Shown piece by piece: positions 29,196 to 48,020 of a DNA stretch of 64,000 bases. The notes under the pieces were generated by a model. That model did no database searches. It saw only the letters and a program-made list of their open reading frames with translations, and had not been told where the DNA came from. This DNA is from Spirochaetaceae bacterium. Lineage in GTDB: Bacteria; Spirochaetota; Spirochaetia; DSM-2461. The position numbers were made by a program, and so were the translations under genes. Numbering within the stretch: the stretch's first letter is position 1; every line of letters starts with the position of its first letter. Location of the stretch: NCBI GenBank assembly GCA_965224705.1, contig OZ245056.1, forward strand, positions 1,728,001 to 1,792,000, in the 5' to 3' direction.

Positions 29196-30702
29196 GCTTA
29201 TCAGGCATTGTCCCGTTCGAGTACGGTGTTCTATAGAACGGTGCCAGGCGGTCTCCCCACTGCTTATAGTGCGCATAAGCACCTTTATACAATTCTGACC
29301 GGGCGGCATCCGGCTTACAGGCGGATGCGTCATCTAAAACCACATGTTCATCCGTCAACGAAAACAAAGTCTTCTCGCCCCCGCCGTGCAGCATCCACAA
29401 AGCTTGCAGGGCGGCCCCGAACGCCGCCGATTCCGGCTGGCGAGGTATCAAAACCGGCAAATCCAGTACATCGGCGGCCATCTGCCGCCAGAGCTTACTT
29501 CTGGCACCGCCGCCAATCAGGCGGATTTCCGTCACCTTGAATCCCAGTTCCCGAAAGCGGTCCAGGCCAGTTTTCAGCCCGAACACCGCCGATTCCATAG
29601 AAGCGCGGATTATGTTGGCACGCTTAAAATTCAGAGAATTCAATCCCATAATACTGCCTCGGGCATGGGGAAGATTGGGTACTCTTTCGCCATTGAAAAA
29701 CGGCAGCATGCAAACTCCTTCCGCACCAATCGGCGCCCCGGATCCCGCTTCATTGATTTCCTCCAGGCTCATCTTCAGGAAGTCTCGGGTAAGTTCTGAT
29801 GCGACTGTACAGTTCATTGTGCATAGCAGGGGCAGCCAGCTATTGCTGGAAGAGCAGAATGCGGCAAGAATACCATCTTCATCAACAATCGGCTTGTCAC
29901 TGCATCCATAGAGGGTGCCGCTTGTGCCCAGGCTCATCGTCATTACCCCATTCCGTACTGCGCCGGTACCAATGGCTCCCATCATATTATCGCCGCCGCC
30001 GCTGGATACCGGTGTCTGCTCAGGCAGCCCGGTAAGGGCTGCCGCCTGTTTCGATATCCTGCCCATCACCGCATCCGGCGGAATAAGACGGGGCAGCTTG
30101 TCCGGCAGGGCATCGTCTATGCAGCGGATAAGCTCTTTATGCCAAACCCTGCCGCGGATATCCAGCAAGGCGGTACCCGAAGCATCGCCATATTCCATAG
30201 CCGCCTCGCCGGTAAGCCAGAAGTTCAAATAATCATGAGGAAGAAGGACCCAGCGCATCTGCTCAAACAATTCCGGATGACGTTTTTTTAACCAGAGAAT
30301 CTTACTGGCAGTGAAACCGGGAGCAATGAGATTGCCTACTTCGGACAGGAGCTTTTCCCTGCCGCCGAACTTTGCGGTTAACTCATTGCACTCCGCCGCA
30401 GTGGATGTATCGCACCATAGTTTTACCCTGTGGAGAGGATTGCCCTGTTCGTCGATGGGAACAAAACCATGCTGCTGACCGGAAACCCCCACTGCCTTCA
30501 CCCGGGAGCGAATCTCCGGATCAACCCGATCCATACAGGATTTCAATGCGTCAGTCCACCACTCTGCTCTCTGCTCACGGCAGCCATCATTCCCGGATAT
30601 AAGTTCGTGATTGGCGGATGCCATAGCCGCTATTTCCCGTTTTTCAGGATCGTAAAAGAGTACTTTTGTACTTTGAGTGCCGTTGTCTATGCCGAGTATC
30701 AT
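29185..30702 (-). CDS. xylB: Xylulokinase (FGGY kinase)
   Basis: LGID.GTQSTK, SGQQHG, LWCD, GGGDNM.GAIG, SLGTSGT, GERVP, GGGARS. Confidence 0.85.
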   Translation of the reverse strand: MILGIDNGTQSTKVLFYDPEKREIAAMASANHELISGNDGCREQRAEWWTDALKSCMDRVDPEIRSRVKAVGVSGQQHGFVPIDEQGNPLHRVKLWCDTSTAAECNELTAKFGGREKLLSEVGNLIAPGFTASKILWLKKRHPELFEQMRWVLLPHDYLNFWLTGEAAMEYGDASGTALLDIRGRVWHKELIRCIDDALPDKLPRLIPPDAVMGRISKQAAALTGLPEQTPVSSGGGDNMMGAIGTGAVRNGVMTMSLGTSGTLYGCSDKPIVDEDGILAAFCSSSNSWLPLLCTMNCTVASELTRDFLKMSLEEINEAGSGAPIGAEGVCMLPFFNGERVPNLPHARGSIMGLNSLNFKRANIIRASMESAVFGLKTGLDRFRELGFKVTEIRLIGGGARSKLWRQMAADVLDLPVLIPRQPESAAFGAALQALWMLHGGGEKTLFSLTDEHVVLDDASACKPDAARSELYKGAYAHYKQWGDRLAPFYRTPYSNGTMPDKPIP

Positions 30703-30713
30703 TGCCTGGTCCT

Positions 30714-31595
30714 CTACAAATGGGAACTGCAGTGAACAACGGAACTTTTAGTGTTCGCCAGTACGTCTTCATCCGTCATCTCAAAAGGATAGAAAACTTC
30801 CAGAAAAACCGGAACATTGTTTAAATTGTACTGCTTCATTTGTTTGCCGAACTGCTCCACGTCAAACAGTCCGCGCTTATCCGGCCAGCCCCAGTGGGAA
30901 TCACTTTGAAAATCGGTATTTTGAATATGAAGCGCACCGATATGTTTCTCCAGTTTTTCAAACCATTCCGTCATCGCTGCCGAATCACCATACAGCGGAC
31001 GGTAGAGGGCATGGCCTATGTCGAGAAGAAAACGGATAGGAATCGCCGTATTACTGAGATCTTTGACCATGGTTAAGGTCTGTTCAATTGTGTGAGGGAA
31101 TTCCCGCTTCAACGGTGTCGGCTCCAGGAGAATCTCCTTCAAACCAGATTTTTTGGCGCACTCGCAGAGGGTATGGAGAAAGTCAATCTGCTCCTTATAC
31201 AACTGACTGGTTTTCCCGGCATCGTTCGCGGCAGCCCAGCTTAATCCACCCAGCGGACCGCCTATAATGCTTACTTCCAGTTCCTCCGCCAGATCAACAG
31301 CGTTCATCCACCATGTTTTTGAGCTTTGTCTCGCCTCTGCGGAGGGATGCATCAAACCATTGTAGGTGTAATAAGCCAGGCCGGCAAATGCACTGTGGAT
31401 AACTATTTCCCGCTGCCTGCAGATTTTATTTGTTGCCGTGGCAAGTTTCCTCCTTTCCGATTGGGGCCACCAGGGATCGATAATATCAAAAGTGAACTGA
31501 ACATGCTTAACTCCCATTTCATCGGCTATCAGCCTGGTCCACTCTTCCGGTTCCGGCCAGCGTTTTACCGCAAAGCTCAAACTTAACCCAAACAT
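30714..31595 (-). CDS. Sugar-phosphate epimerase, TIM barrel (EryC-like)
   Basis: LSFAVKRWPEPEEW, LEPTP..RE.P, LD.GHA, H.Q.TD...D.HW; AGGAGG RBS before ATG 31595. Confidence 0.75.
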   Translation of the reverse strand: MFGLSLSFAVKRWPEPEEWTRLIADEMGVKHVQFTFDIIDPWWPQSERRKLATATNKICRQREIVIHSAFAGLAYYTYNGLMHPSAEARQSSKTWWMNAVDLAEELEVSIIGGPLGGLSWAAANDAGKTSQLYKEQIDFLHTLCECAKKSGLKEILLEPTPLKREFPHTIEQTLTMVKDLSNTAIPIRFLLDIGHALYRPLYGDSAAMTEWFEKLEKHIGALHIQNTDFQSDSHWGWPDKRGLFDVEQFGKQMKQYNLNNVPVFLEVFYPFEMTDEDVLANTKSSVVHCSSHL

Positions 31596-31616
31596 AATCA
31601 ACCTCCTGTGGGTGAC

Positions 31617-32180
31617 TTATTCCAGATTTGTGTGCCGTGAACGCATTTCTTCCGGACTCTGTCCGGTCTTTTCCCGCAGCATTATTGAAATTATATCGAA
31701 AAAGACAATCTGAACAATTTCATACAGGCTGCCCATTGGCAGAATGCTTTGGCCACCGCTTTTATCATCAGCCATGGTTTGTGCCGGTAAGCAGACAACG
31801 GTATCTGCCTGTTTTGGTACATCGCCATCGGACTGTGCCGTTACCGCCATCACCCGGGATCCAGCCTTCTGGGCTGTACCGGCAAGGGCTGAAACGGTGG
31901 AAAAATATCCCGGTCCCGCGCTGACAATCAGCAAATCCCCTTTCCCCAGAGGGGGAGTGGTCATGTCGCCTGTTACATGGGCATCCAACCCCAGATGCAT
32001 CAAACGCATGCACAGGGCTTTAATCATCAAACCTTCCCTGCCCACGCCGTAACAGGCAATCCGTTTTGCCTTCAGTATTTCCGCACACATGGCTTCTGCC
32101 GCTTCGGTGGATATCTTTTCACAGACTTTTTTAACATCTCCCAGAGCCGAGTTCGCCATTTCTTGAAAGTTGTTTGTCAT
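31617..32180 (-). CDS. SIS-domain protein, 6-phospho-3-hexuloisomerase-like
   Basis: GVGREGL...MRLMHLG, GDMTTP, PMGSLYE, RHTNLE. Confidence 0.85.
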
Positions 32181-33187
32181 TAGTTCTTTTTCCTCCTCTT
32201 ATTTAACAGTAGCCGTGAGACAGCATCAATGGACACGGCTATTACGACCACCGAACCGCTGACTATTGTCTGCCAGTAAGAGGATACTCCCAGAAGGACG
32301 ATAACATTCTGGATAACAGAAATAATCGAAACTCCAACGATAGCACCGACAGGATTGCCAATCCCTCCGGTAAGCGCCACGCCGCCGATTACCGGAGCGG
32401 CTATCGAAGTCAGCAGCCAGACTTCACCGATGGAAGGCTGGGATGAACCGAGCCGCGATACCATAAGCATTCCGGCCAGAGAGCCAAGAATACCGGCGGC
32501 GGCAAATGTCGCGGTACGGACAAGTTTTACCCGGACACCGACAATCTTCGCCGCTTCACGGCTGTCACCGATGGCGTAGATATAGCGTCCAAAAGTTGTA
32601 TACTGGGTTAAAATGATTATGAGCACTATACTGATGAACATGACAATAAACGGTACTGGCAGCCCGAATGCCATGCCCTGGCCAAGAAACAGGATTTTCT
32701 CCGGTATGTTCGTTATCGCTCTGCCGCGGGTAATAACCAGATTTATTCCCTTATATATACCAGACATGCCAATGGTAACCACCAGAGGATTCAATTCCAG
32801 TGCGGAAATGATTCCTCCATTTACCGCCCCGAAAACACCGCCCAGCAGAACACAAAGAATAAAGGAAAGCACCGGGTCCATTCCTGCTTCCACCATCAGC
32901 TTTCCACCGATTATCGCGGTGAGGCCGGCAATGGAGCCAATCGACAGATCAAGCTCGCCAAGAAGCAAAAGCAGCGATTGGCCAAGTGCCACCAGTCCCA
33001 CGAAGGCGATAGAACGAATAATGATGGTAATATTGTATTCAGTAAAAAAATTCCCCCGGGTTGCAGCCTGAGAGATAATCATGATAATGATCAACACCCC
33101 GATCATCCCGATAAACTGCTTTTGCCCGCCTATGTAGTTATTTCTGTTCAGGACGCTTCTTTTTATAGTGTTTAAGCTGAATTTCAT
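32180..33187 (-). CDS. Ribose-type sugar ABC permease
   Basis: [28 protein letters not shown]. Confidence 0.9.
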
Positions 33188-34677
33188 TTCGCTGCTCCAA
33201 TTATTTCCCGCATTATTACGGATTTATCGATTTCCCCGGTGTAGAATTCAGCGGTCTTTCGACCCATGTAGAAGGTGATAATACGGCTGGTACATTTTAT
33301 TATCTCATCCATTTCCGATGATACTAGAATTATGGCGATGCGCTCCTGTTCGGCAAGATTTCTGATACGGCGGTGAATTTCTGCTTTTGCTTTAACGTCT
33401 ATTCCTTTGGTGGGTTCATCAAAAATTATCAGTTTGGGCTTTCCGAAGATAGCCCGGCCAATAATAGATTTTTGTTGATTTCCCCCGCTAAGGTACATAA
33501 TTTGCTGATTCAGGCCGCTGGTTTTTACATCAAGTTTTTCAATAAGCTGCTGAGAGATGTTTTTTTCAATGCTGCGTCGGATAAAACTCAGTTTTGAGGT
33601 TGCTTTGAATAAGGCAATGCCAAGATTATGCTGCACGCTCTGGGAAGGAAATATCCCCTGTTGTTTGCGTTCTTCAGGCAGATAGACAATCCCTGAACGC
33701 AGCGCATTAGGCGGACTTGATTTGTACTTTTTCCCCTTGAATTCAATGCTGCCGGAATCGTATTTCAAATAGCCCAGTATTGACTGCATCAGTTCACTGC
33801 GTCCGGCACCGATTAACCCGGCAAACCCGAGAACCTCCCCTTCGCGAATCTCGAAACTCACATCGGAAAACCTGATTCCGTCAAGATGCTGAACTTTCAT
33901 AACCACATCGCCACCGGGAACAGTCGGACGAAATACTTCATCAATATCAATTTCTTCCCCTGACATTTTCGTGACAATCCACTTGCTGTCCACCTGTTCA
34001 ATTGGCAGTTCCCCTACCAGGCAGCCATTGCGCAGTATGGACACATGAGTGCCGATGGCGAACATTTCTTCCAGCTTGTGGGATATAAAAATGATTGTCT
34101 TTCCTTCGCTTTGAAGCCGTTTAACGATTCTAAACAGCACCTCTATTTCTAAATTGGTGAGCGATGTGGTTGGTTCATCCATGATGAGAACTTTGTAGCC
34201 GGTTTGGGTTTCGGCTCTGGCAATTTGTAAAAGCTGCTGGTGCGCGATGGAGATATTTCGTACCATTTCCTGCGGGTTCACATTGATGTGGAATTCCGCC
34301 AGCCGTTCCTTTGCCCGCTGATTCATCATTTTCTTTGAGACAAAAGGCCCTTTCATGCCGCTTTTATTAAACGGCATGAAAAGGTTTTCCGCGACAGTCA
34401 TATTGGGAAACAGATCAATCTCCTGAGGGACGCAGGCAATCAAATCATGGACAGCCCGGTGAGCTGAAACATCCCGGCCATCAATTAGAATCCTGCCTTT
34501 GTCAGATTTGTAAAACCCGGTTAGGACTCTTACCAACGTACTCTTTCCGGCACCGTTTTCACCTATGATGCAGTGAACACTCCCCGCACGGACTTTCAGA
34601 TTTATATCATCCAGTGCGATAACTCCCGGAAAACTCTTGGTCAGATTAAAAACTTCAATTACAAATTGCTGATCCAT
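33184..34677 (-). CDS. Sugar ABC ATP-binding protein (two ABC domains)
   Basis: GENGAGKST, MDEPT, LSGGNQQK, DEPTKGIDV; start probably ATG 34677. Confidence 0.9.
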   Translation of the reverse strand: MDQQFVIEVFNLTKSFPGVIALDDINLKVRAGSVHCIIGENGAGKSTLVRVLTGFYKSDKGRILIDGRDVSAHRAVHDLIACVPQEIDLFPNMTVAENLFMPFNKSGMKGPFVSKKMMNQRAKERLAEFHINVNPQEMVRNISIAHQQLLQIARAETQTGYKVLIMDEPTTSLTNLEIEVLFRIVKRLQSEGKTIIFISHKLEEMFAIGTHVSILRNGCLVGELPIEQVDSKWIVTKMSGEEIDIDEVFRPTVPGGDVVMKVQHLDGIRFSDVSFEIREGEVLGFAGLIGAGRSELMQSILGYLKYDSGSIEFKGKKYKSSPPNALRSGIVYLPEERKQQGIFPSQSVQHNLGIALFKATSKLSFIRRSIEKNISQQLIEKLDVKTSGLNQQIMYLSGGNQQKSIIGRAIFGKPKLIIFDEPTKGIDVKAKAEIHRRIRNLAEQERIAIILVSSEMDEIIKCTSRIITFYMGRKTAEFYTGEIDKSVIMREIIGAAK

Positions 34678-34736
34678 TATGCAATAATTTCTGTCCTCTG
34701 GTATGATCTCAAAGATACTGAGAGATTCTCCGCGGT

Positions 34737-35720
34737 TTAGAAGCCAACATAATTGGGATCCGCCGCCAATTCCGTTGTTAACAAACCAATACCCGTATCG
34801 ATAACTCTTGGTGAGGGCTGGCCTATTGCCTGCTGCCATAATGCGAGAACGGAATACTGCCCCTGCATGAGCGGTTTTGTACAGGCTGAAAATTGCATTA
34901 TGCCTTCATTCATCAATTGAATCATTGGCGGCAGATCTTCCAGGCCGATTAGCAGAACCTCGCCCGCTTTACCGGCTTCGCGGATAGCTGAGCCGATACC
35001 GATGGGACCGGCCGCATCACTGGTAACAAAGCCGTTAAGATCGGGATGGGCGGACAGAATGGAAGCCGCCTGCTCCTGAGCCTGCTCAATACTGTCATTT
35101 GCGATGCCTTCGGCAACAACTTCAATATCGGGATATTTCGCAAATACAGCACGGTGCGATTCGGTGCGAATCCTGTGATTCGGTGCTGTCGGCACACCCT
35201 GCATAATGGCCACTTTCCCCTTGTAATCAATCATCTCTGCGAGTCTTTCCGAAGCGTAGGCCGCCTGCTCCGCGAAGTCGTTATTCACTTCTGTAAGGTT
35301 CATGCCCGGAGGGGAAACAGAGTCAAAAATAACCACAGGGATGCCCCGCGAAATAGCTTCTTCCAGCAGCACCCGGTTTCCATCCGGATCGAGCAAATCA
35401 ATGAAGATTCCATCGGGGTTGGTTGCAATAGTTCTCTCGATAATCTCATTTTGTTGAACAACATCGGCGTTTTCCGGAGCACGATACTCTACTTCAACAA
35501 TATCACCCGTTTCTTCCGAAAGACGCTCTGCTGCGGCAATCGCACCTTTCTCCACCTGATCAAACCAGGGATGAACAACCTTCGAAATCATGACGAACCG
35601 GAAAGTTCGCTGAGTTTCGGCTGTCTGATCCGTCTTCTCTGCTTCTTCCTGAGCAGTACAGGCTGCGAAAAGGATACTGAACAGCAACAAAACGACAATG
35701 CTGGGCACAAGTTTTTTCAT
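34737..35720 (-). CDS. Sugar ABC substrate-binding lipoprotein
   Basis: Lipobox FAAC; K.VHPWF, GIPVVIFDS, QGVPTAPNH; GAGGAGG RBS. Confidence 0.9.
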   Translation of the reverse strand: MKKLVPSIVVLLLFSILFAACTAQEEAEKTDQTAETQRTFRFVMISKVVHPWFDQVEKGAIAAAERLSEETGDIVEVEYRAPENADVVQQNEIIERTIATNPDGIFIDLLDPDGNRVLLEEAISRGIPVVIFDSVSPPGMNLTEVNNDFAEQAAYASERLAEMIDYKGKVAIMQGVPTAPNHRIRTESHRAVFAKYPDIEVVAEGIANDSIEQAQEQAASILSAHPDLNGFVTSDAAGPIGIGSAIREAGKAGEVLLIGLEDLPPMIQLMNEGIMQFSACTKPLMQGQYSVLALWQQAIGQPSPRVIDTGIGLLTTELAADPNYVGF

Positions 35721-36316: not shown

Positions 36317-37255
36317 GTGGGCGTGATCGTTACAATTATCGTTCCCTGTTTCAATGAAGAAGAAGTCATCACGGCCACATGCAGCCGATTATCCGATATG
36401 GCCAGGGGTGTAGACTGGAATGCGGAGTTCCTGTTTGTCAACGATGGGAGCCGGGATCGGACTTTAGAACTGCTTAGAGAGCAATGTGCACTAGACACAA
36501 GGTTCAAAATTGTCAGTTTCTCCCGGAATTTTGGACACCAGTCTGCGGTCAGTGCCGGATTAAAATACGCTTCGGGAGATGCGGCCGTCATTATCGATGC
36601 CGATCTTCAGGATCCGCCGGAACTTATCCCCGAGATGGTGAAAAAATGGCAGGCGGGCGAAGGCGACATTGTCTTCGGTCAGCGAACCGTTCGGAAGGGA
36701 GAGTCCGTATTCAAGAGAGTCAGCGCGAAGCTGTTTTACCGGATACTCAACCGGCTTGCCGATACATCAATTCCCAATGATACCGGGGACTTTCGCCTGG
36801 TTGACAGGAAGGTTGTCGATGCTTTCAACAATCTACCTGAGCGAAACAAATACATCAGAGGCCTGTTCCCCTGGCTCGGTTTCAAATCGGTGCCTATTGA
36901 ATATGAACGGGATCCACGGCTGGCCGGGGAAACAAAGTATCCTCTGACGAAGATGATCCGATTTGCCTCCGATGGATTCCTTTCCTTCAGCCGTAAACCT
37001 CTGAAGATGGCCACTGGATTCGGAATTGCCAATATAATTATCTCGCTTGCCCTTGTGGTTTGTGTCTTTGCCGCTTACCTTTCGGGCTTGATTGTAGCGG
37101 TTTCGGACTGGATTTTGATTCTTCTGATCGTTATTTTCTTCAGCGGTGTGCAGCTTCTCTGCATCGGAGTTCTGGGGTCATACATCGGACGGATATTTGA
37201 TGAAGTTAAGGGACGGCCGGAGTTCGTTGTCGATGAAACTCTTGGATTGGAATAG
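36317..37255 (+). CDS. GT2 polyprenol-phosphate glycosyltransferase (GtrB-like)
   Basis: VPCFNEE, VNDGS.D.T, FSRNFGHQ, IDADLQDPPE, GDFRL.D, two C-terminal TM helices. Confidence 0.92.
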   Translation: MGVIVTIIVPCFNEEEVITATCSRLSDMARGVDWNAEFLFVNDGSRDRTLELLREQCALDTRFKIVSFSRNFGHQSAVSAGLKYASGDAAVIIDADLQDPPELIPEMVKKWQAGEGDIVFGQRTVRKGESVFKRVSAKLFYRILNRLADTSIPNDTGDFRLVDRKVVDAFNNLPERNKYIRGLFPWLGFKSVPIEYERDPRLAGETKYPLTKMIRFASDGFLSFSRKPLKMATGFGIANIIISLALVVCVFAAYLSGLIVAVSDWILILLIVIFFSGVQLLCIGVLGSYIGRIFDEVKGRPEFVVDETLGLE

Positions 37256-37269
37256 GAGATGGATAATAC

Positions 37270-38643
37270 ATGAAACTGCAGAGCGATCGCTGGTTCAAAC
37301 CGATCTGGATTTTTTACGCTGTCATCCTTGTGCTTCTCTATACAGTTTTCTTTGATTCATATCTGAATGAATATCTGGATAATGCCTGGACTCTCTCCTG
37401 GGCTCACGGATGGTGGACGGATGGCGAGGTCTATGATCAGGTCTTCGGACATATCAAAGGAGACGGAGGAACATCCCTTTTCAGCCGGTCATTTGTATTT
37501 GTCTACGGCGGGCTTGCACAGGTTTTCGGATGGAGCCGGGGTGTCGGAATTATTATCTCCTCACTGTTCACTATCGGAACGGCAGTACTCTGGTATCGTA
37601 TTGTCCGGAATCTGGGATATCGCAAACAGGCCGCAGTCAGTTTTGCCCTGATCTTGCTTCTTCTTGAGATTTTCTATGCCAACGGGCACAAGATCCGGGT
37701 GGATGCCATGGGATTATTCCTGGATAGTCTGGCCCTTCTTCTTTTTATCAGGCACAGGTATCTGCTCGCAGGATTGGTCCTTGGCATTGCCTTTGAGAGT
37801 CATCCCTTCGCCATGGCCGCAGGTTTCTGGATGCTGGCATATCTGTGGACTTTTCGGAAAGATGTACAGAAGGACTGGAAAATCTGGTTTAAAAGGGCCG
37901 GGTTGTTCTTTGCGGGGCTGAGCATTGGATTTTTGTACTGGTGGCTTCTGCACCATAAGTACTTAGGAAACACTGGAGTTGGTGAACGTTTGAACGGCAA
38001 CGCACTCTGGGAATACTTTTTCGTGAAGCGGTATTCCTGGAGGCACTGGCCGGAACTGGTCATGATTTTAGCGGGAACAACTGTATTTATTGTAAAAAAA
38101 TCCTGGAAGAAACATCCGTTCATCCTGCCGTTTATGATCGCTTCCCTATTGGTTACTTTCATAATACCCCGGGCGAATTTTCACTATACCGCTTATGTCT
38201 ATCTCTCTTTTGTGCTGCTTCTGATTGTTGCCGCCGAGGATTTCAAAATACTTCCATGGCTGCTGGCGGGTATTTTCCTCTTCCAGGTTCCCCAATACGG
38301 CTGGCTGTTCTGGACACAGAAGGGATATAACCAGCGTGAGTACATGGCCGAACTGCAGGCCAGAGTTCCAAAGGAACCGGAAACGATCTATGGGAATCCG
38401 GGTTCCTGGTTTGCCTTTCAGGACCGTGATTACAGAGCCTACGGATATTATGAGAGAGCCGGGATTCCGCAGGAAGAATGGCCGAAAGCGTTTCTGACAA
38501 TAGTCACCAAAGATATTGTCCGATGGGGAGGAATGAATACTTATTCGGAAATGACTCACAGGTACAGCACAACCCTCCTCGACGAATGGACCGACTGGGA
38601 GGGAAAACCCGTAAGGCTGCTGCTTCATGAGCGAATCGATTGA
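37270..38643 (+). CDS. Multi-TM membrane protein, probable GT-C glycosyltransferase
   Basis: Many TM segments, early acidic LD motif, RVD motif; lies between GtrB-like and GtrA-like genes. Confidence 0.65.
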   Translation: MKLQSDRWFKPIWIFYAVILVLLYTVFFDSYLNEYLDNAWTLSWAHGWWTDGEVYDQVFGHIKGDGGTSLFSRSFVFVYGGLAQVFGWSRGVGIIISSLFTIGTAVLWYRIVRNLGYRKQAAVSFALILLLLEIFYANGHKIRVDAMGLFLDSLALLLFIRHRYLLAGLVLGIAFESHPFAMAAGFWMLAYLWTFRKDVQKDWKIWFKRAGLFFAGLSIGFLYWWLLHHKYLGNTGVGERLNGNALWEYFFVKRYSWRHWPELVMILAGTTVFIVKKSWKKHPFILPFMIASLLVTFIIPRANFHYTAYVYLSFVLLLIVAAEDFKILPWLLAGIFLFQVPQYGWLFWTQKGYNQREYMAELQARVPKEPETIYGNPGSWFAFQDRDYRAYGYYERAGIPQEEWPKAFLTIVTKDIVRWGGMNTYSEMTHRYSTTLLDEWTDWEGKPVRLLLHERID

Positions 38644-39088
38644 TACCGCTGAGTCCCGTAAGGGGCATCATTTTTTTTTCCGCGAATTCTGGACAATGTT
38701 CCGCTACGGTCTTGTGGGCTTTGCCAATACCGGTGTGTTTGCCCTGGCCGCCTGGCTGCTTGAAAAGACCGGTTGGCATTATACGGCCTATACGGCTCTG
38801 GCCTACGCCATCGCAATTCTGTTCAGCTTCACGATGAACACGCTCTTCACATTCAGGAAATCGGGTAATCCTCTGCTTCCTATGTTCACAAAGTTCATCA
38901 TTACGACCCTGAGTCTGCTGGGCCTGGTACAGTTAATACAGCTGGTTCTAATAGAAAAGGCGGGTTGGCAGGAACTGGCCGGCATCATCGCCGGGATGGT
39001 GTTCTACACAGGAGTCGGGTACACTATCAATCGGATCTGGGTCTTCCGGATCGCAGGACCGAAGGACCAGGAGTCTGTCGGAGCTTAA
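38627..39088 (+). CDS. GtrA family protein
   Basis: RYGLVG..NT, SF.MN..FTF, Y..NR.WVF. Confidence 0.88.
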   Translation: MSESIDTAESRKGHHFFFREFWTMFRYGLVGFANTGVFALAAWLLEKTGWHYTAYTALAYAIAILFSFTMNTLFTFRKSGNPLLPMFTKFIITTLSLLGLVQLIQLVLIEKAGWQELAGIIAGMVFYTGVGYTINRIWVFRIAGPKDQESVGA

Positions 39089-39150
39089 GTCAGAACTCGT
39101 CTTTGACCCTTAATACGGCACCTAAAAAGCCGCTTAAAATGCTCATGGAG
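39071..39150 (+). mobile_element. Degenerate MITE family A copy overlapping the 3' end of the GtrA gene
   Basis: CCAG|GAGTCTGTCGGA...CTCG.CTTTGACCCTT...AAAATGCTCA. Confidence 0.55.
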
Positions 39151-39377
39151 TGCGCTATGAAAACTCGTAGGGAGGGGAGGTCAGAAAAATAGAATTTTAG
39201 TTACAGAAACTTCTTTTACAACCTGATGGATATCAATCCCATCTGTTAGGAGTACTGGCAATGCAGGCAGAAGCAGTCCTGCATGTGTTATCGTAAAATA
39301 CTACTGGACAAATCGCCCAGGTAGATTTAATATGCTTATAGACATCTAGAAGACTATATTTCTATAAGAGGTGCGGG

Positions 39378-40181
39378 ATGGGAAGGCAGTTACGATATCT
39401 GGAGATTGCGCAAACTCTGAAGGACAGGATCCGAACGGGGAGGTATCCGCATGGGGAATGCCTTCCCAGCCAGAGAGAGCTGGCGAAAATTTTTACAACT
39501 TCCCTCATGACTGCCCGACAGGCTTTGGCGGTTCTCGAAGAAGAGGGAATTATCAAAGTGGTGCATGGCTTAGGTACCTTTGTTTCCGCCCCGGAGATAC
39601 ACTCTGATGATATCAGCCTCCAGGGGTTCCAGAACGAAATGGACCAGCACAGGACAAAAATCATCAATAAGACCATTGGCAAGGAGTACGGTCTTTCCGA
39701 TCCTCTCCTTGATGCCGTTTTTAGGGGCACAGACATGCGGTTCTCTCGTCTCTCCTGTCTCCGCATGCTGGACGATACTCCTGTTATCCTCCAGCGTTCC
39801 TATGTGGAGGGGGATGAATACAAGCGGGTGATTGAGGAATACCAGGAGGATCAGTCCCTCTATCAACTGTTCATTGAGAGAACCGCGGTTATGATCACAC
39901 TGGGCAGGGAGATTGTCAGTTCCGTACTGCTGGAGGGTGAGGAGCTGAAGCTGCTTGGACTTAATACCCCCTGTACCGCTTTTAGATCGAGAAGAATCAG
40001 CATCAGTCTGGATGCCCGGGTGGTCCTCTACGATGAGGCGTATCTTCCCGGTCAGTACATCATTATGGCCTCAAGCAGGCAGGGTAAAAATAATAGATTC
40101 AAGTACATCATCAACAGGGATGGAATCTCAAACTCCACGAGAAGCTTCAACGATCCGGATTTATGGGAAGATTTGATTTAG
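39378..40181 (+). CDS. GntR family regulator (HutC/UTRA type)
   Basis: RY.EIA..LK.RI..G, LPSQRELA, T.RQAL..L, G.GTFV; upstream TGGACA-17-TAATAT. Confidence 0.88.
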   Translation: MGRQLRYLEIAQTLKDRIRTGRYPHGECLPSQRELAKIFTTSLMTARQALAVLEEEGIIKVVHGLGTFVSAPEIHSDDISLQGFQNEMDQHRTKIINKTIGKEYGLSDPLLDAVFRGTDMRFSRLSCLRMLDDTPVILQRSYVEGDEYKRVIEEYQEDQSLYQLFIERTAVMITLGREIVSSVLLEGEELKLLGLNTPCTAFRSRRISISLDARVVLYDEAYLPGQYIIMASSRQGKNNRFKYIINRDGISNSTRSFNDPDLWEDLI

Positions 40182-40182
40182 T

Positions 40183-41691
40183 ATGCAGAATGCGAGTGCA
40201 CTGAAGGTTACCAATCTCAAGAAGGGATACCCGGGAGTTCAGGCCCTGAAAGGAGTGGATCTTTCTTTTCTGAAAGGGGAAGTGCATGGCCTCATCGGGG
40301 AGAACGGTGCAGGAAAATCGACCCTTATCAAAATTTTGGCGGGGATTGTCGAATCCGATTCGGGAACGGTCCATGTAGACGGAAAGATCGTGGAGATTAA
40401 GAATAGCAAGGATGCCTCCCGGGCGGAGCTCTGCTTCATACACCAGGAGCTTAACCTGGTTACCTACTTTAACGCCGTGGAGAACATCTTCTTAGGGCAT
40501 GACTACCCCCGCCGCATCGGCCCCCTGGTAGACTGGAAGAGATTGAATAAGAAAACCAGAGCAATCCTGAAACAGCTGCAAATGGAGATTCCCCTAAACC
40601 TTCCGGTGAGTTATCTCTCCGCAGTGGACAGAGCAATGGTGGCCATTGCCCGGGCATTCGCCGTTTCTGGCGAGGTCTACTTCATGGACGAACCGGCCAC
40701 CGCCCTGACGGACGTCGAGAAGGAGAAACTCTTTGCGGTGATCAAAAATCTAAAAAATCAGGGAAAGACGGTGGTTTATGTCTCCCATAATCTGGACGAT
40801 GTGCTTTGCATAACCGATCGTATCACGGTGATGCGGGACGGCACCGTGGTGGAGTGCAAATCCACATCGGAAATGACTAAAGACAGTCTGATCTCAGCGA
40901 TGATCGGAAGGAATCTGGAATCTGCCTTCCCGGAAAAAGATTACAAAACCGGCGAGGTTGTCTTTCGGGCCGATGGTATCTGCAGCTCTGCCGTTGAAGA
41001 GGTCAGTTTTGAAATCCGTTCTGGTGAAATTCTGGGAATCGGAGGTCTTGTCGGTTCGGGCCGGACCGAACTTCTGGAACTGCTCTTTGGTGTAACTCCT
41101 CTAAGCAAAGGAAGAATGTGGCTGGACGGAAGGAAGTACAAACCCGTCGCCCCCGGAAAGGCTATCGACAGGGGAGTCAGCCTGGTTCCGGAGGAGAGGA
41201 GAAAGCAGGGCTTGGTGTTACGCCGATCGATCTACGAGAACATCTCCCTCATGTTCCTGAATCAGTTGGCAAGGGGTGGATTTCTGAACCACCGTGAGCT
41301 AAAGACGGTTTCGAAAGAGGCGGGCAGGCAGGTACGGCTTAAAACGGCGAACTACAGCAACCATGTGGGAACTCTCTCGGGAGGGAATCAGCAGAAGGTG
41401 GTCTTCGCCAAAACGCTGCTTAAACCACCGCGGCTTCTTCTTTTAGATGAACCTTCCAAAGGTGTGGATGTGGGGGCGCGATTCGAGATTTATTCGATTA
41501 TCAGGGATCTGGCCGCACGGGGAACCGCCGTCATAGTGGTGAGTTCCGACTCCAATGAAATCCTCGGTCTGGCGGATAGAATTCTCTTTCTTAGAGAGGG
41601 AAAACAGAGCCGGATAATGAGGAACAGAGGCATGGATCAGGAGTACTATTTGAATTACTGCTATGGGAAAGAGAAGAATGACCAGAAATAA
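40183..41691 (+). CDS. Sugar ABC ATP-binding protein
   Basis: GENGAGKSTL, MDEPAT, LSGGNQQKV, DEPSKGVDVGA. Confidence 0.92.
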   Translation: MQNASALKVTNLKKGYPGVQALKGVDLSFLKGEVHGLIGENGAGKSTLIKILAGIVESDSGTVHVDGKIVEIKNSKDASRAELCFIHQELNLVTYFNAVENIFLGHDYPRRIGPLVDWKRLNKKTRAILKQLQMEIPLNLPVSYLSAVDRAMVAIARAFAVSGEVYFMDEPATALTDVEKEKLFAVIKNLKNQGKTVVYVSHNLDDVLCITDRITVMRDGTVVECKSTSEMTKDSLISAMIGRNLESAFPEKDYKTGEVVFRADGICSSAVEEVSFEIRSGEILGIGGLVGSGRTELLELLFGVTPLSKGRMWLDGRKYKPVAPGKAIDRGVSLVPEERRKQGLVLRRSIYENISLMFLNQLARGGFLNHRELKTVSKEAGRQVRLKTANYSNHVGTLSGGNQQKVVFAKTLLKPPRLLLLDEPSKGVDVGARFEIYSIIRDLAARGTAVIVVSSDSNEILGLADRILFLREGKQSRIMRNRGMDQEYYLNYCYGKEKNDQK

Positions 41692-42652
41692 CGTAGAAAA
41701 GACCCCTGGCCGTGAGGATGTGATCGGGCGGTTCATAAGGATCTGGGGAACCCTTCTGGGATTCGTTCTTTTACTCTTTGTTTTCACCATTATCAGGCCC
41801 GATGTGTTTCCTTCTTTGAAAAACATCAAAAACATTGTAGAGCAGGTGGCTACCCTGACCATAGTCGCTTCGGGAGTGACGGTGGTTATGGTGACCGGTG
41901 ATTTTGATCTCTCCGCAGGGGCCATTGCCAGCCTGGTGGGAATTGTATGCGCCATGCTCATGAAGGCGGGGACCGGAACTTTCCTGAGTATTCTTGCCGC
42001 CCTTGCTCTGGGCACCGGGGCGGGACTGGTCAACGGCCTCTTCATTGCCTATGGCGGACTTTCAGCCTTCGTGGGAACCCTGGCCACCATGACTGCTTTC
42101 GGTGGAACGGCCCTGCTCATATCAGGGGGAACGACCCTCTTCGGATTATCCGAGAATTTCAAGTTTCTGGGGCAGGGGAGTGTTGGATTCGTTCCCTTCC
42201 CGGTACTGGTAATGGTGGTAACGCTGGTGGTGATTTATCTTCTGCTGGAGCAGACCACCTATGGAAGACGGCTCTACGCTATAGGGGGAAACACCGAAGC
42301 CTCCTTTCTTTCGGGAATTGATACTAAGAAGGTGCGTCTGGCAGCCTTCGGGATATCCGGATTTTTCGCCGCCCTCGGAGGGGTGGTTCTGACCAGCAGA
42401 CTCAACTCCGCCCACCCGCAGGCGGGATCTCCCTTCATGTTGAACGCCGCCGCCGCAGTTTTTCTTGGAATGACCGCTTTTAGAGAGGGAGAGGCTAACA
42501 TTCAGGGAACCCTGCTGGGAGTTTTTATCATGGGTGTGATGGGCAACGGCTTGAATATCCTGGGGATCAACTCCTATGTTCAGTCCATTTTAACTGGAAT
42601 TATCATCATTTTAGCGGTGCTGCTTTCCAGTCTGTCGAAGAAGAGAGGATGA
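41678..42652 (+). CDS. Ribose-type sugar ABC permease
   Basis: GDFDLS.G, YGRRLYAIGGN.EAS.LSGI. Confidence 0.9.
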   Translation: MTRNNVEKTPGREDVIGRFIRIWGTLLGFVLLLFVFTIIRPDVFPSLKNIKNIVEQVATLTIVASGVTVVMVTGDFDLSAGAIASLVGIVCAMLMKAGTGTFLSILAALALGTGAGLVNGLFIAYGGLSAFVGTLATMTAFGGTALLISGGTTLFGLSENFKFLGQGSVGFVPFPVLVMVVTLVVIYLLLEQTTYGRRLYAIGGNTEASFLSGIDTKKVRLAAFGISGFFAALGGVVLTSRLNSAHPQAGSPFMLNAAAAVFLGMTAFREGEANIQGTLLGVFIMGVMGNGLNILGINSYVQSILTGIIIILAVLLSSLSKKRG

Positions 42653-43452
42653 TGAAACAGGAAATTCTGTCATTCAAAGACAGGGAGAGACATCCTCCCC
42701 TCATCGGATATCTCCCGGCTTTCTATCCCGATACGGCAGCTTATCAAGAGATGATGGGGCTCTGTTCCCTCCTGGGCCTTAGATTTATCGAGGTAGGGAT
42801 TCCCTGCGAAAACCCCTATCTCGACGGTCCGCTGATACAGCAGGCTCTGACGGCCGTTTTGAAGAGTGCACCCGACCCCTTTCGTGTCCTGGAAGACTCG
42901 GGTCGAATCATACGTACTTCGGGATTGCGGGGAGTGGCCATGATGTACAATGAAACATTGGAAACCCTATGTGTGGATTTGGTGATAGATCACTGCGGCG
43001 TAACCGGATTCGAGACGGTGCTTGTTCCCAATGTGAAGGAGAAGAACAGGAGCCGTCTCTATGATGCGTCTTTGAGAAACGGGGTGGAGATTGCAAACTT
43101 CATCAGCTTACACCAGGGAGAAGGGGAGATCCGAGAAATCGCCGCCGAAACAACGGGTTTTCTCTACCTCCAATCCACCGAGGGAAGCACGGGTGGTCAA
43201 TTCACCGGTGGTAGTGAAATGGCCGAGCGTGTCAGAATGGTGAAGGAAATTGCCGAACCCCTGGGGCTTCCGGTTGCTTTAGGATTCGGCATCAATTCTC
43301 CCTGCGATGCGGAAGAGGCAGCCGCCATCGGCGCCGATGCGGTTATTGTGGGCACTTCTTTTCTAAGGGCTGCCCAGGCAGGAAGAGATTCTCTCTCTGT
43401 TTATCTTAAGGATTTCTCCCTACACATGGAGGATGCACGATGTCCAGAATAA
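42649..43452 (+). CDS. Tryptophan synthase alpha-like protein (orphan, in a sugar operon)
   Basis: IEVGIP..NP.LDGP.IQ.A, M.YN, GFLY.QS..GSTG, LGFGI, ADAVIVGT. Confidence 0.82.
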   Translation: MMKQEILSFKDRERHPPLIGYLPAFYPDTAAYQEMMGLCSLLGLRFIEVGIPCENPYLDGPLIQQALTAVLKSAPDPFRVLEDSGRIIRTSGLRGVAMMYNETLETLCVDLVIDHCGVTGFETVLVPNVKEKNRSRLYDASLRNGVEIANFISLHQGEGEIREIAAETTGFLYLQSTEGSTGGQFTGGSEMAERVRMVKEIAEPLGLPVALGFGINSPCDAEEAAAIGADAVIVGTSFLRAAQAGRDSLSVYLKDFSLHMEDARCPE

Positions 43453-44951
43453 TCTCCGCCGATATCGGCACAACCGCCGCTAAGGTCGCTCTGGTGGAAC
43501 TCTCGGGAAACATTGTAGACACGACGGCCCGCTCCTACCCTTTGAAAGTGAAAGGTTCATGGGCGGAGCAGAATCCGCAAGACTGGTGGACGGCCTTTTG
43601 CGGGGGAGTGAAGGAACTGATGGACCGGAATGGAGATTCTTCCCTTCAGGCATTGGTCTTGAGCGGGCAGATGCAGGACTTGATTCGCATCTCCCAGGGC
43701 GAACCGAAGGGAGACGCCATTCTATACTCGGACACCAGGGCGCGAAAAGAGTGGACCCAGCTGGCACAGGAACTGGGGGAGGATCTCTTAATCGAGAAAA
43801 CCCGAAACCTGGGGGATCCTGCCGGACTTCCTGGTAAGCTTCTCTGGCTGAAGAGTCGGAGAGAACAAATCTCCGGAGAGAGAACCATGGTTCTCCTGGG
43901 GGCTGCCGATTTTATCTGTTGGAAGCTTACGAATCGCTTTGTCACCGACTATACAAACGGTTCCACCACCGGGCTGATGAATTTCGACGACAACCGCTGG
44001 GATCCAGATATCCTTCAATATCTTGGCATATCCGAACTCAACCTGCCTGAACTTGTTTCGGCGGATGAGATTGTCGGTACTGTATCTGGAGGAGCAGCGG
44101 TAGAAACCGGACTGCCCAATGGGATTCCTGTGATCCACGGCACCGGCGATGCTGGTTCGGTCACCATCGGGGCGGGGGCCGGCATCCAGGGAATAATCTC
44201 CTGCTACCTTGGTACCTCCGGCTGGGTCGCCGTCACTGGAGAAAGTCCCGTTGATCCTACAACGGGGATTTTCAACTTAAGACATCCCGATGGAGATAAG
44301 GTTCTCAACATCGGGCCCATGCTCATGGCAGGCGGCAACGTGGAGTGGGCTTTGAGGACCTTCCTGGGGGATCACGAGGGCGACCTTTCCGAGAACGCCT
44401 TTGAACTCTACACCCGCCTGGCAGCGAAAGCGGTTCCAGGTTCAGGGGGGATTTTCTACCTCCCCTATCTCATGGGAGAGCGTTCACCCTTCCGGGATCC
44501 CGATGCCCGGGGAGCATTCATCGGAATGGGGAGAGAAACCGGTCGGGCGGAGATGTTTCGGGCGGTTCTTGAAGGGATTTCCTACTCTATGAATTCCATT
44601 TTGGGGATACTTACACCGTCGTCGCAATCGGAACGAATGATCTATCTCTCAGGCGGTGGGGCGGAGAACCCGGTATGGGCGGAAATTCTTGCTTCGGTTA
44701 CCGAAAGCATAGTCGTTACCGCCTCAAGTGCCAGGGAAACCGGAATCCTTGGAAACACCGTGATCGCCGGAAGGGCGTTGGGGCTTTTTGATTCCTATGG
44801 ACTGCCTCCCGGTTTTTTGCAGGTTGAGGAAGAGTTCTACCCAGAGAAGGAACTGGTGGATTTTTACCGGGGGGGGATGGAGATCTTTAATGGGGTCTAT
44901 CCTGCACTTAAGGAAACCTTCAGGACTGTCCCCCTCTGGTTAAATAAGTAA
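43440..44951 (+). CDS. FGGY family carbohydrate kinase (xylulokinase-like)
   Basis: DIGTTA.K, SGQMQ, ILYSD.R, GDAG, LGTSGW, GERSP. Confidence 0.9.
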   Translation: MSRIISADIGTTAAKVALVELSGNIVDTTARSYPLKVKGSWAEQNPQDWWTAFCGGVKELMDRNGDSSLQALVLSGQMQDLIRISQGEPKGDAILYSDTRARKEWTQLAQELGEDLLIEKTRNLGDPAGLPGKLLWLKSRREQISGERTMVLLGAADFICWKLTNRFVTDYTNGSTTGLMNFDDNRWDPDILQYLGISELNLPELVSADEIVGTVSGGAAVETGLPNGIPVIHGTGDAGSVTIGAGAGIQGIISCYLGTSGWVAVTGESPVDPTTGIFNLRHPDGDKVLNIGPMLMAGGNVEWALRTFLGDHEGDLSENAFELYTRLAAKAVPGSGGIFYLPYLMGERSPFRDPDARGAFIGMGRETGRAEMFRAVLEGISYSMNSILGILTPSSQSERMIYLSGGGAENPVWAEILASVTESIVVTASSARETGILGNTVIAGRALGLFDSYGLPPGFLQVEEEFYPEKELVDFYRGGMEIFNGVYPALKETFRTVPLWLNK

Positions 44952-44991
44952 TAATGCCTGCGGGCATAATTATAATAATATGGAGGAGCAG

Positions 44992-45915
44992 ATGAGAAAA
45001 CTTAGTTTACTGCTTGTTGCGTTGATCCTGGCTGCTGTATTGGCAGTACCGGTTTTTGCCGGAGGGGCTCAGGAAGGAGGTGAGGCTTCAAAGACCGTAG
45101 CGGTGGTTACACCCTATATGGCCAATGCCACCACCGCCTATGTGATCGAACAGTTCAAGAAAAACGCCTCGGCGGAGGGGTGGAAGGTTAATGTCTCCGA
45201 TACCGCCGGTGATTTCGGTCTTCTGGTAAGCCGGATCGAAGACGCCGTGGCCCAGAATGTGGATGCCATCGTTCTTGGAATGGGGGATCCAGCCCAGATG
45301 ACCAGGGGGTTGAAATCCGCCACGGAGGCGGGGATCCCTGTTTTCGGTCTTGATGCGGGTCTTGCCGAAGGGGTTTTGTTAAACATTACCTCCGATAACG
45401 CCGACCTGGGAAAACAGACTGCAACTCTCCTGGCTGAGGCTATCGGCGGAGAAGGAATGGTCATTATGTACACCCATGATCCTCACCCGGGTGTAAGGGC
45501 CCGAGCGGTAGGAGCCCAGGAGGTTTTCGACAGCTATCCCGGAATTACAGTGGTCAATAAATTCCACATAGAGGTTCCCGGACCGGTGGATAACGCTCGA
45601 AAGATCACCGAAGATGTTCTTACTGCCGATAGTGCCGATGGTACCGTGGCCGGTATTTGGGCCGGATGGGATGAACCAGCCTACGGAACAACCCAGGCTT
45701 TAGAGGCGGCGGGCCGCACCGATGTAAAGGTCGTTGGTATCGACGGAACCGACTTTGCAAAGGCGGAGATTGATAAAGGCGGTCCCTTCGTGGGAACCAT
45801 TGAACAGAACTTCGATACAATGGCGGCTCAGCTGGTTGAACTGATTGGCAGCTATTTTAACGGAATCGCCCCGGAAAGTGACTGGTACCAGATTCCCGGA
45901 AAGCTGTATAAGTAA
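44992..45915 (+). CDS. Sugar ABC substrate-binding protein
   Basis: FAGGAQE signal, GIPVFGLD, SDN...G, VVGIDG; GGAGG RBS before ATG 44992. Confidence 0.9.
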   Translation: MRKLSLLLVALILAAVLAVPVFAGGAQEGGEASKTVAVVTPYMANATTAYVIEQFKKNASAEGWKVNVSDTAGDFGLLVSRIEDAVAQNVDAIVLGMGDPAQMTRGLKSATEAGIPVFGLDAGLAEGVLLNITSDNADLGKQTATLLAEAIGGEGMVIMYTHDPHPGVRARAVGAQEVFDSYPGITVVNKFHIEVPGPVDNARKITEDVLTADSADGTVAGIWAGWDEPAYGTTQALEAAGRTDVKVVGIDGTDFAKAEIDKGGPFVGTIEQNFDTMAAQLVELIGSYFNGIAPESDWYQIPGKLYK

Positions 45916-46423: not shown

Positions 46424-47305
46424 CTGGAAGTCAAAACCAACTGTTATCTCGGTGATTGTGCAGAAGTATTGAAAGAGATGCCCGAAAACAGTATTGACCT
46501 TATTTTTACCTCACCTCCCTATGCCGACCAGAGAAAAAACACCTACGGTGGTATTCACCCGAAAAAATATGTTCAATGGTTCTTACCAAAATCAGAGCAA
46601 TTTTTACGAGTTCTCAAACCAAACGGGACATTTGTTTTAAACATCAAAGAAAAAGTAACTGACGGGGAGCGCAGCACCTATGTCATGGAACTGATACTTG
46701 AGATGAAAAAACAGGGATGGTTCTGGACGGAAGAATTTATCTGGCATAAGAAGAATTGTTACCCCGGAAAATGGCCCAATCGTTTTCGGGATGCCTGGGA
46801 GAGACTTCTTCAATTCAATAAAACGAAAAAATTCAAAATGTATCAGGAAGAGGTCATGGTTCCTATGGGGAATTGGGCAAAAAGCCGTCTAAAGAAATTG
46901 AGTGATACGGATAGAATTCGCGATGAATCCAATGTCGGCAGCGGATTCGGAAAAAATATCTCCAACTGGCTGGAAAGAAGTAAAGCCTATCCCACAAACG
47001 TACTTCATCTTGCCACAGAGTGCACTAATAAAAAGCACAGTGCTGCTTTTCCTGAAGAACTACCCCGATGGTTTATCAAACTCTTTACAAAAGAATGCGA
47101 CACTGTTCTGGATCCGTTTATGGGAAGTGGAACAACAAATATTGTTGCAAGCAAAATGCTAAGACATTCAATTGGAATTGATATTGTACCGGAGTACTAT
47201 GAAATGGCAAAAAAACAGATTAAACCTGTAGAGTTTTATCTTTGCGAGAAACCACCGGAGGATTATGGCAGCGCTAAAAATCGCCGACGTAGTGCAGTAC
47301 GTTGA
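46424..47305 (+). CDS. Beta-class N4/N6 DNA methyltransferase (probable CTG start)
   Basis: GDC..VL, TSPPY, H.A.FP, VLDPFMGSGTT; in-frame CTG 9 nt after the RBS. Confidence 0.9.
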   Translation: MEVKTNCYLGDCAEVLKEMPENSIDLIFTSPPYADQRKNTYGGIHPKKYVQWFLPKSEQFLRVLKPNGTFVLNIKEKVTDGERSTYVMELILEMKKQGWFWTEEFIWHKKNCYPGKWPNRFRDAWERLLQFNKTKKFKMYQEEVMVPMGNWAKSRLKKLSDTDRIRDESNVGSGFGKNISNWLERSKAYPTNVLHLATECTNKKHSAAFPEELPRWFIKLFTKECDTVLDPFMGSGTTNIVASKMLRHSIGIDIVPEYYEMAKKQIKPVEFYLCEKPPEDYGSAKNRRRSAVR

Positions 47306-48020
47306 AAAGAATATAGATGTTTTTCATGAGAAACGAATTGACAGGCTTAAATCCTTAAAGCTTAAAACTGTACTCAGCAAAAAGAACCCCTACCTTTTCA
47401 AAGCTAAATATTTTCTAACTGCAGAAGAAGTAATACGAGGTATCACAGATGCTTTTATCTCGTCAAATGAAGAGACTGTTTTTGGTGACTGGCTGGAAGG
47501 ACTTGCTATTTTCATCAATGAAAAAGTGTATAAAGGCCGAAAATCAGGAATTACCGGAATTGACATAGAATTTGATAGGGATAAAATCCGCTACATAGTT
47601 GCCATAAAATCAGGACCGAACTGGGGAAACAGCAGTCAGGTGGCAAAGATGAAATCAGATTTCAAAACAGCAATTAAAGCATTGCGCACAAGTAATTCAG
47701 GATTACACGTAACACCAATCAATGGTTGTTGTTACGGGAAAGATAGTAATCCTGACAAGGGAGATTATTTCAAATACTGTGGACAGCAGTTCTGGGAATT
47801 CATATCAGGAGATAAGAATCTATTCACTGACATAATTGACCCGCTGGGGCATAAAGCAAAAGAAAGAAATGATGATTTTCAAAAGTCCTATTCTCAAATG
47901 CTCAATGTGTTTACAAGAGAGTTTACAAATGATTTCTGTTCAAGCGATGGAGCAATTGACTGGAAGAAACTGGTCGAATTTAATTCTGCAAAAAATGAAA
48001 AAACGCCCCATAACGGTTAA
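47265..48020 (+). CDS. Type II restriction endonuclease (EcoO109I/PmeII-like)
   Basis: KNPYLF, SSNEETVFG, GIDIEF, IKSGPNWGNSSQ, GQ.FWEFI; overlaps the MTase. Confidence 0.82.
   Translation: MAALKIADVVQYVEKNIDVFHEKRIDRLKSLKLKTVLSKKNPYLFKAKYFLTAEEVIRGITDAFISSNEETVFGDWLEGLAIFINEKVYKGRKSGITGIDIEFDRDKIRYIVAIKSGPNWGNSSQVAKMKSDFKTAIKALRTSNSGLHVTPINGCCYGKDSNPDKGDYFKYCGQQFWEFISGDKNLFTDIIDPLGHKAKERNDDFQKSYSQMLNVFTREFTNDFCSSDGAIDWKKLVEFNSAKNEKTPHNG

Follow-up and report, generated by a model that had tools for sequence, protein, structure and literature searches.

Tryptophan synthase's alpha subunit (TrpA) splits indole-3-glycerol phosphate (IGP) into indole and glyceraldehyde 3-phosphate through the catalytic pair Glu49/Asp60, according to the accessible part of PMC11574760. 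Dedicated stand-alone TrpA paralogues, the IGP lyases (IGLs), are described from plants in the accessible parts of the same paper and of PMC9100643. Within those parts, TrpB-independent IGL activity is also reported as obtained by engineering or design (PMC11574760), and IGL activity is given as not widespread among bacterial TrpAs, the TrpA of Corynebacterium glutamicum being one that releases indole without TrpB (PMC9100643). The subject of this study is a six-gene operon with a TrpA-like protein at positions 39,378 to 45,915 of the window, the whole 64,000-nucleotide stretch of DNA that was analysed (positions 1,728,001 to 1,792,000 of contig OZ245056.1, assembly GCA_965224705.1, Spirochaetaceae bacterium).

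The window protein is like TrpA, as defined by the model TIGR00262, in its fold, catalytic Glu/Asp, loop-6 Thr-Gly and phosphate site. Unlike TrpA, it is not encoded beside trpB, falls under the model cut-off and on a separate branch, has lost residues that TrpB-partnered TrpAs keep and is paired with or fused to an FGGY kinase. With plant BX1/IGL, as far as the accessible parts of PMC11574760 and PMC9100643 describe them, it shares the condition of a TrpA paralogue without TrpB, the same catalytic pair and Tyr58 followed by a bulky residue 59. It differs from them in being bacterial and coupled to uptake and phosphorylation rather than to secondary metabolism. The C. glutamicum enzyme is a canonical trpBA subunit, whereas the window encodes a dedicated paralogue served by a transporter, a kinase and a regulator of its own. 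Salvage by a kinase followed by cleavage is known, for example for pseudouridine (PsuK/PsuG), as are polyol pathways linked to solute-binding proteins (SBPs). Routes of the PsuK/PsuG type resemble the present operon in import, phosphorylation and breakage of a C-C bond that frees a sugar phosphate; the enzyme families differ, and we know of no such route or SBP-linked polyol pathway in which an FGGY kinase is paired with the TrpA fold. No description of the operon, of the fusion or of an indole-glycerol kinase was found in searches of the open-access literature, where the supplements of PMC3245297 and PMC9100643 could list members. The locus is a real and conserved operon: its parts come from known families, their arrangement was not found described, and by analogy it would function in the manner of a plant stand-alone IGP lyase joined to uptake and phosphorylation. 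Our preferred reading, held with reasonable though not high confidence on sequence evidence, is that the operon imports indole-3-glycerol, phosphorylates it to IGP and cleaves this without TrpB to glyceraldehyde 3-phosphate and indole.

The TrpA-like subfamily and its gene neighbourhoods

Analysis of the TrpA-like protein placed it outside canonical TrpA, in a distinct subfamily of the TrpA family. It scored 96.4 against TIGR00262 (cut-off 102.35). Its AlphaFold model (predicted local distance difference test, pLDDT, 94.6) gave only TrpA and BX1 matches in Foldseek (template-modelling (TM) scores 0.80-0.87), and BX1 was its top match among solved sequences. A homologue search returned 61 matches, 31 of them at E<=3e-53 and the next at E=4e-28. 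A profile search enlarged this group, whose named members come from Spirochaetota and Chloroflexota; the gene was found in none of 400 other sampled genomes of the phylum at E<=1e-35. All trees were quick trees with Shimodaira-Hasegawa-like approximate likelihood-ratio (SH-aLRT) support and did not include BX1. The subfamily split from canonical TrpA with a support of 99 (58 versus 43 rows) and, after subsampling and removal of 6 long or duplicate rows, of 100 (27 versus 23 rows).

An earlier note on this DNA, made from the sequence alone, had listed equivalents of Glu49/Asp60, of the loop-6 GxTG and of the GFGI and VGT motifs, and all are present by alignment to E. coli TrpA. Window Glu48 and Asp59 correspond to Glu49 and Asp60, Gly179/Thr181/Gly182 to Gly181/Thr183/Gly184, Gly212-Phe-Gly to Gly211-Phe212-Gly213, and Gly235-Thr236 to Gly234-Ser235. 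Among 45 subfamily sequences (the frameshifted L090 excluded), Glu49, Gly61, Ile64, Tyr175, Thr183, Gly184, Gly211-Phe212-Gly213 and Gly234 are invariant (100%; E. coli numbering here and below), and Asp60 and Tyr102 are kept at 97%. The pocket aromatics Tyr22, Tyr102, Tyr175 and Phe212 are retained, and position 196 carries a conserved Arg/Lys. Eight other residues (Ser55, Asp56, Asn104, Asp130, Pro132, Glu135, Pro156 and Arg162), which we take to face TrpB, are variable or replaced in the subfamily; they are conserved at 94-99% in 175 comparison TrpAs, a set drawn mostly from Solirubrobacterales that took in three proteins later assigned to the subfamily. Leu58 is replaced by Tyr in 80% of the subfamily, and its Tyr58/Leu59 parallels the Tyr/Ile at 58/59 of stand-alone maize BX1. 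Codon comparison indicates that the protein is under purifying selection: three divergent pairs gave ratios of nonsynonymous to synonymous substitution rates (dN/dS) of 0.15, 0.08 (with dS close to saturation) and 0.22, and a pair that is 99% identical and has few changes gave 0.44.

The neighbourhood survey that started from TrpA is a sample (160 loci fetched, alignment scans covering 27 and 22 of 64 parts) that includes no Chloroflexota and no Rhodococcus locus. Fifteen loci belong to the subfamily, among them two near-duplicate pairs (L087/L090 and L013/L091). All 15 keep the order permease, TrpA-like gene, kinase, and trpB is adjacent in none; trpB is adjacent in 133 of the other 145 loci, and an FGGY or binding-protein match was found in 0/145. 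The subfamily gene order is therefore not due to chance, and the linkage of the TrpA-like gene to kinase and ABC (ATP-binding cassette) genes noticed in the window holds for its homologues. The SBP gene comes next in 11/15 loci, three contigs stopping before it, and GntR is the first operon gene in 11/15, the remaining four contigs being cut. The linkage often extends to fusion: L010 and L011 encode the TrpA-like protein and the kinase in one open reading frame (ORF), such single-ORF fusions span 758-761 amino acids (Sphaerochaetaceae), and 11 of the best 120 kinase matches carry PF00290 and are fusions. In all, there were 510 matches to the SBP and 2537 to the kinase. A rough check on shared source genome found an SBP or kinase partner for 15/30 subfamily proteins versus 0/27 comparison TrpAs; a locus scan with a single protein as query gave no match.

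The earlier note had treated the gene as an orphan. The sole trpB above the cut-off in this genome lies outside the window (C1:1810321-1811463), beside a canonical trpA and an adjoining trpC, with trpE/trpG-D-like ORFs upstream (read from the sequence). This makes the window gene an additional paralogue, not the genome's only trpA. A second, canonical trpA was likewise found in 4/4 other subfamily genomes and in 4/4 genomes of the second subfamily described below. No tryptophanase was found in this genome. Its own canonical trpA (L001:1462-2346) has a long branch, His at position 22 and Gln at 51.

One may ask whether the TrpA-like protein is a non-catalytic partner, or an extra alpha subunit that serves TrpB. 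Apart from some GntR rows, no operon gene is less conserved (27-48% identity), and a second trpB1-like gene occurs away from trpA in seven related genomes (G401, G403, G1185, G1192, G1197, G1201 and G1207), a trait looked for in operon-bearing genomes only. These extra trpB genes, possibly indole-salvage TrpBs, lie far from the operon, and invariant catalytic residues, lost TrpB-side residues and purifying selection all argue against such a role, which we consider barely credible.

A second TrpA-like subfamily (L234-L242, Sphaerochaetaceae-related genomes) shows 21-26% identity both to the window protein and to canonical TrpA, and its operons are led by a PF04198 sugar-binding regulator, not GntR. 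It keeps the catalytic residues, retains Ala/Ser59, and has Gly21, Phe153, Gln177 and the loss of Asn104/Pro132/Arg162 in common with the first; in the tree, the two lie together on the same side of the canonical TrpAs (SH-aLRT 93).

Other TrpA-family oddities were also encountered. A third orphan gene, with Asp60 replaced by Glu and without the loop-6 Thr-Gly, is the last in an operon of G1192 (L245:7469-17923) that encodes GntR/UTRA, a BMP-type ABC importer, an isochorismatase-family hydrolase, a PfkB kinase, a nucleoside phosphorylase, BtpA and an iron-containing alcohol dehydrogenase, possibly a modified-nucleoside pathway. Next to it (L245:3932-7303), a protein with what we take to be a His-Xaa-Ser repeat was read from the sequence, along with two presumably radical-SAM-like ORFs. 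In P0292 and P0310, TrpA is fused to NUDIX or to prephenate dehydratase domains.

Sister operons carrying tryptophan synthase genes

A search that started from the SBP, and was thus independent of TrpA, was made by family searches over 21 and 101 genomes and yielded 16 further loci. These genomes are kin (two families, one duplicate), so the counts that follow are not independent and no statistic is attached to them. A tryptophan synthase gene adjoins the SBP in 15/16 loci, the sixteenth contig stopping right after the SBP. The window type accounts for four loci, of which one is fused, one is the same as L088 and one has trpBA beside it as well. In eight, a gene of the second subfamily stands between permease and kinase; one of these loci is cut, one again has trpBA at its side, and one, L236, is just upstream of trpE-G-D. 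Two are ordered trpB-trpA-SBP-ABC-permease-kinase, and one has trpB after the kinase at the contig end. In L215, L236 and L240, stand-alone operons directly adjoin trp genes.

In 400 genomes of the phylum, as among 20 genomes of its order or class, the only other match of the SBP was in G070; 251, 301 and 131 genomes of three other phyla gave none. The G070 operon reads trpB, trpA, SBP, ATPase, permease and kinase on the same strand. The TrpA encoded there is canonical, and no other was found in G070 (genome 89% complete), with none after its trpCF. A clade uniting this TrpA with the subfamily was not rejected, and neither was an unrelated control clade; no donor is claimed. The leader (L172:8906-8962, minus strand) holds an 18-codon ORF with two adjacent Trp codons, followed by two GC-rich hairpins with U runs. 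A leader with Trp codons followed by hairpins with U runs is the anatomy of a tryptophan attenuator, which the G070 leader resembles in sequence. No Rfam leader family matched it, and a terminator scan also missed its hairpins. Transcription would have to read through the 101-bp gap between trpA and SBP, as we infer that it does.

On plasmids, five records held the closest SBP matches and three of these were inspected. Kinase, SBP, ABC and GntR genes lie beside divergent trpBA on the Nitratireductor OM-1 plasmid. In N. kimnyeongensis, trpBA is at the opposite end of a record listed as linear, and synteny suggests that module and trpBA adjoin. As controls, trp matches were found in 0/3 distant SBP loci and 0/6 loci of kinases with other signatures. 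Among six other SBPs of this fold checked in the genome of the window, a single one has a trp gene within 10 kb, namely the window's own gene. In L185 and L186, distant SBPs of this fold are accompanied by thiamine-dependent dehydrogenase E1 subunits as well as an FGGY kinase.

The substrates that FGGY kinases phosphorylate are small sugars and polyols, commonly ketoses, and XylB has a Met-His signature (accessible part of PMC3245297). The window kinase has the FGGY fold of XylB and of its closest solved sequence, PDB 3hz6 'xylulokinase' (E 4e-58). XylB TIGR01312 is its best family score, yet at 295.8 bits it is below the cut-off of 380.25, and the specificity signature is M-Q-A-D-W versus M-H-G-D-V in XylB. 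By these sequence measures it is not XylB. Of the GlpK signature Arg83/Glu84/Tyr135/Asp245/Phe270, Asp alone is retained. Trp-linked kinases have M-[QE]-x-D-W in common (M-Q-[ST]-D-W in 11/11 examined kinases from the SBP search). Seven actinobacterial kinases matched with a Rhodococcus relative carry other signatures, and 6/6 examined had no nearby trp genes. One may speculate that the Trp at the fifth signature position stacks on an indole ring. The SBP missed the NCBIfam cut-offs for RbsB, XylF and the allose-binding protein (best 76 bits versus 337), and Trp-linked SBPs have common motifs.

Where transporter and kinase are retained together with canonical trpBA, in one case following a Trp leader, their simplest role would be to supply IGP, and the imported compound would therefore be indole-3-glycerol. 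The earlier note had offered this compound as an example, and the sister operons lend it genomic support. An alternative is that the module salvages dephosphorylated carboxyphenylamino-deoxyribulose, which the kinase would rephosphorylate and TrpC convert to IGP for the TrpA-like enzyme. The common action of FGGY kinases on ketoses would suit this, as would trpC in 10/10 genomes tested and the position of L236 upstream of trpE-G-D. Against it, what the operon retains, in some cases as a fusion, is TrpA, trpC was identified in no operon (though it was not a query in either locus survey), and it lies on other contigs in G070 and G1185. We regard this alternative as very improbable.

Operon layout and regulation

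The six genes are tightly packed or overlapping on one strand, as first described, with every label backed by Pfam (Table 1). The junctions, in gene order, are a 1-bp gap, overlaps of 29, 4 and 13 bp, and a 28-bp gap.

Table 1. Features of the TrpA-like operon (positions in the window).
Feature	Position	Strand	Basis
Sigma-70-like promoter candidate	39305..39333	+	Consensus scan, 9/12 matches; adjoins operator
22-bp near-palindromic operator, predicted GntR site	39337..39358	.	20/22 positions equal to own reverse complement
GntR/UTRA regulator, 267 amino acids	39378..40181	+	PF00392 + PF07702
CUT2-type ABC ATPase, 502 amino acids	40183..41691	+	PF00005 twice; RbsA/XylG-like, under their cut-offs
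ABC permease, 329 amino acids	41663..42652	+	PF02653; 61-82% identity among loci of the subfamily
Stand-alone TrpA-like TIM-barrel protein, 267 amino acids, predicted IGP lyase	42649..43452	+	PF00290, 113 bits
FGGY kinase, 503 amino acids, predicted indole-3-glycerol kinase	43440..44951	+	PF00370 + PF02782
SBP, 311 amino acids	44980..45915	+	PF13407

The promoter candidate is weak taken alone, because the scan gave 8 sites versus 4.4 expected. An operator-like site lies 5' of GntR in 9/10 subfamily loci (16-22 of 22 positions matching). The operator matrix scored 34.6 at the window operon, the next best in the genome being 16.2, and gave a single site each, at the operon, in 3/5 other genomes. 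A search for a wider regulon turned up no further site, either in this genome or elsewhere in the five others scanned. Since the near-palindrome is conserved 5' of GntR in relatives and has no comparable second copy in the genome, it is probably the operon's own GntR operator. One RNA run with a small share covered scattered contig pieces only and gives no evidence of expression or habitat.

The surroundings hold other elements. A depth spike and loose ends in two runs at about 39080-39275 suggest a small repeated element 5' of the promoter. A surface-glycosylation cassette (GtrB-like glycosyltransferase, PMT-like membrane protein, GtrA) occupies 36317-39088, and a type II restriction-modification pair of low GC content, made up of an N6/N4 methylase and an EcoO109I-like endonuclease, lies just 3' of the operon at 46469-48020. 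A separate sugar operon, unrelated to the TrpA-like one, lies on the minus strand at 29185-35720, with a binding protein, ABC, permease, SIS-domain protein, xylose-isomerase-like barrel and different FGGY kinase.

Proposed pathway, substrate and meaning

In the proposed pathway, the ABC importer would take up indole-3-glycerol, or a close indolyl-polyol, and the FGGY kinase would convert it to IGP. The TrpA-like paralogue would then cleave IGP by a retro-aldol reaction, without TrpB, to glyceraldehyde 3-phosphate and indole. The former would enter glycolysis; the indole would be released, or captured by the cell's TrpB to give tryptophan. In sister operons with trpBA, the same import and phosphorylation module would feed tryptophan synthase directly. 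Indole-3-glycerol is excreted by microbes.

Several observations weigh against this assignment. Searches of the open-access literature turned up no paper that treats free indole-3-glycerol as a nutrient in nature. A Trp leader was looked for and not found before the window operon or in the other trpBA-linked operons tested, the loci of the SBP search come from kin genomes, L009 has no binding-protein gene in the roughly 5 kb downstream, and no second TrpB or TrpB2 for indole capture was found in this genome. Relative to canonical TrpA, the pocket is altered (Ala59 to Leu in 97%, Ile/Leu153 to Phe in 100%, Leu177 to Gln/Pro), and no conserved arginine stands at position 179 or 186, the loop-6 arginine discussed for BX1 in the accessible part of PMC11574760 being absent; specificity may therefore have shifted. 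The window SBP is only 34-42% identical to trpBA-linked SBPs.

The pocket changes and the SBP divergence, together with the different regulator family of the second subfamily, would suit another substrate for the window branch. The same chemistry would then act on a different (hetero)aryl-polyol, for example an indolyl-polyol with a substituted ring or a longer chain, or a pyrrole or imidazole polyol, cleaved for an aldose phosphate, with only the trpBA-linked operons handling indole-3-glycerol. We consider this unlikely, though worth keeping in view: kinase signature and SBP motifs are alike in both operon types, BX1 cleaves IGP despite a bulky residue 59, the second subfamily keeps Ala/Ser59, and L215, L236 and L240 adjoin trp genes.

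The remaining contrary points concern plain sugar or polyol catabolism, in which the kinase would yield a ketose or polyol phosphate, the TrpA-like barrel would be a repurposed aldolase, isomerase or epimerase, and the trp links would be historical. The best sequence and TM match of the SBP is 4wt7, reported with allitol, and XylB is the kinase's best-scoring family. In the third inspected plasmid record, Rhizobium sp. BG6, a 38% identical SBP and an FGGY kinase occur with no trpA on that replicon; its kinase signature and SBP motifs differ from the Trp-linked ones. The orphan TrpA-like gene of G1192 stands in a nucleoside-type operon, so the TrpA fold can be recruited elsewhere. This explanation leaves the canonical trpB/trpBA of the sister operons and the Trp leader unaccounted for. 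It also has to face the missed XylB cut-off and signature, the retained aromatic pocket, and the absence of trpA/trpB matches from all nine control loci of other kinase and SBP subfamilies. It is accordingly judged improbable.

Cleavage of indole-3-glycerol after phosphorylation is thus retained as the preferred reading for the window. For the wider group, which spans Spirochaetota, Chloroflexota and some Alphaproteobacteria, the evidence tips somewhat towards an undescribed pathway for the salvage of indole-3-glycerol, in which importer and kinase feed either tryptophan synthase or stand-alone IGP lyases, kinase-lyase fusions included. Of the new catabolic pathway suggested in the earlier note, the sequence of import, kinase and cleavage finds genomic support; tryptophan or indole salvage is indicated at least as much as carbon catabolism.

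If true, two natural bacterial subfamilies and their kinase fusions would be blueprints for the independence of TrpA from TrpB and candidates for indole production. A substrate would be given to FGGY kinases labelled xylulokinase and to SBPs labelled ribose-binding, and genes mis-annotated as tryptophan synthase alpha chain would be flagged. A leaked tryptophan intermediate would then be a cross-fed nutrient, and these bacteria would have a route to indole without tryptophanase.

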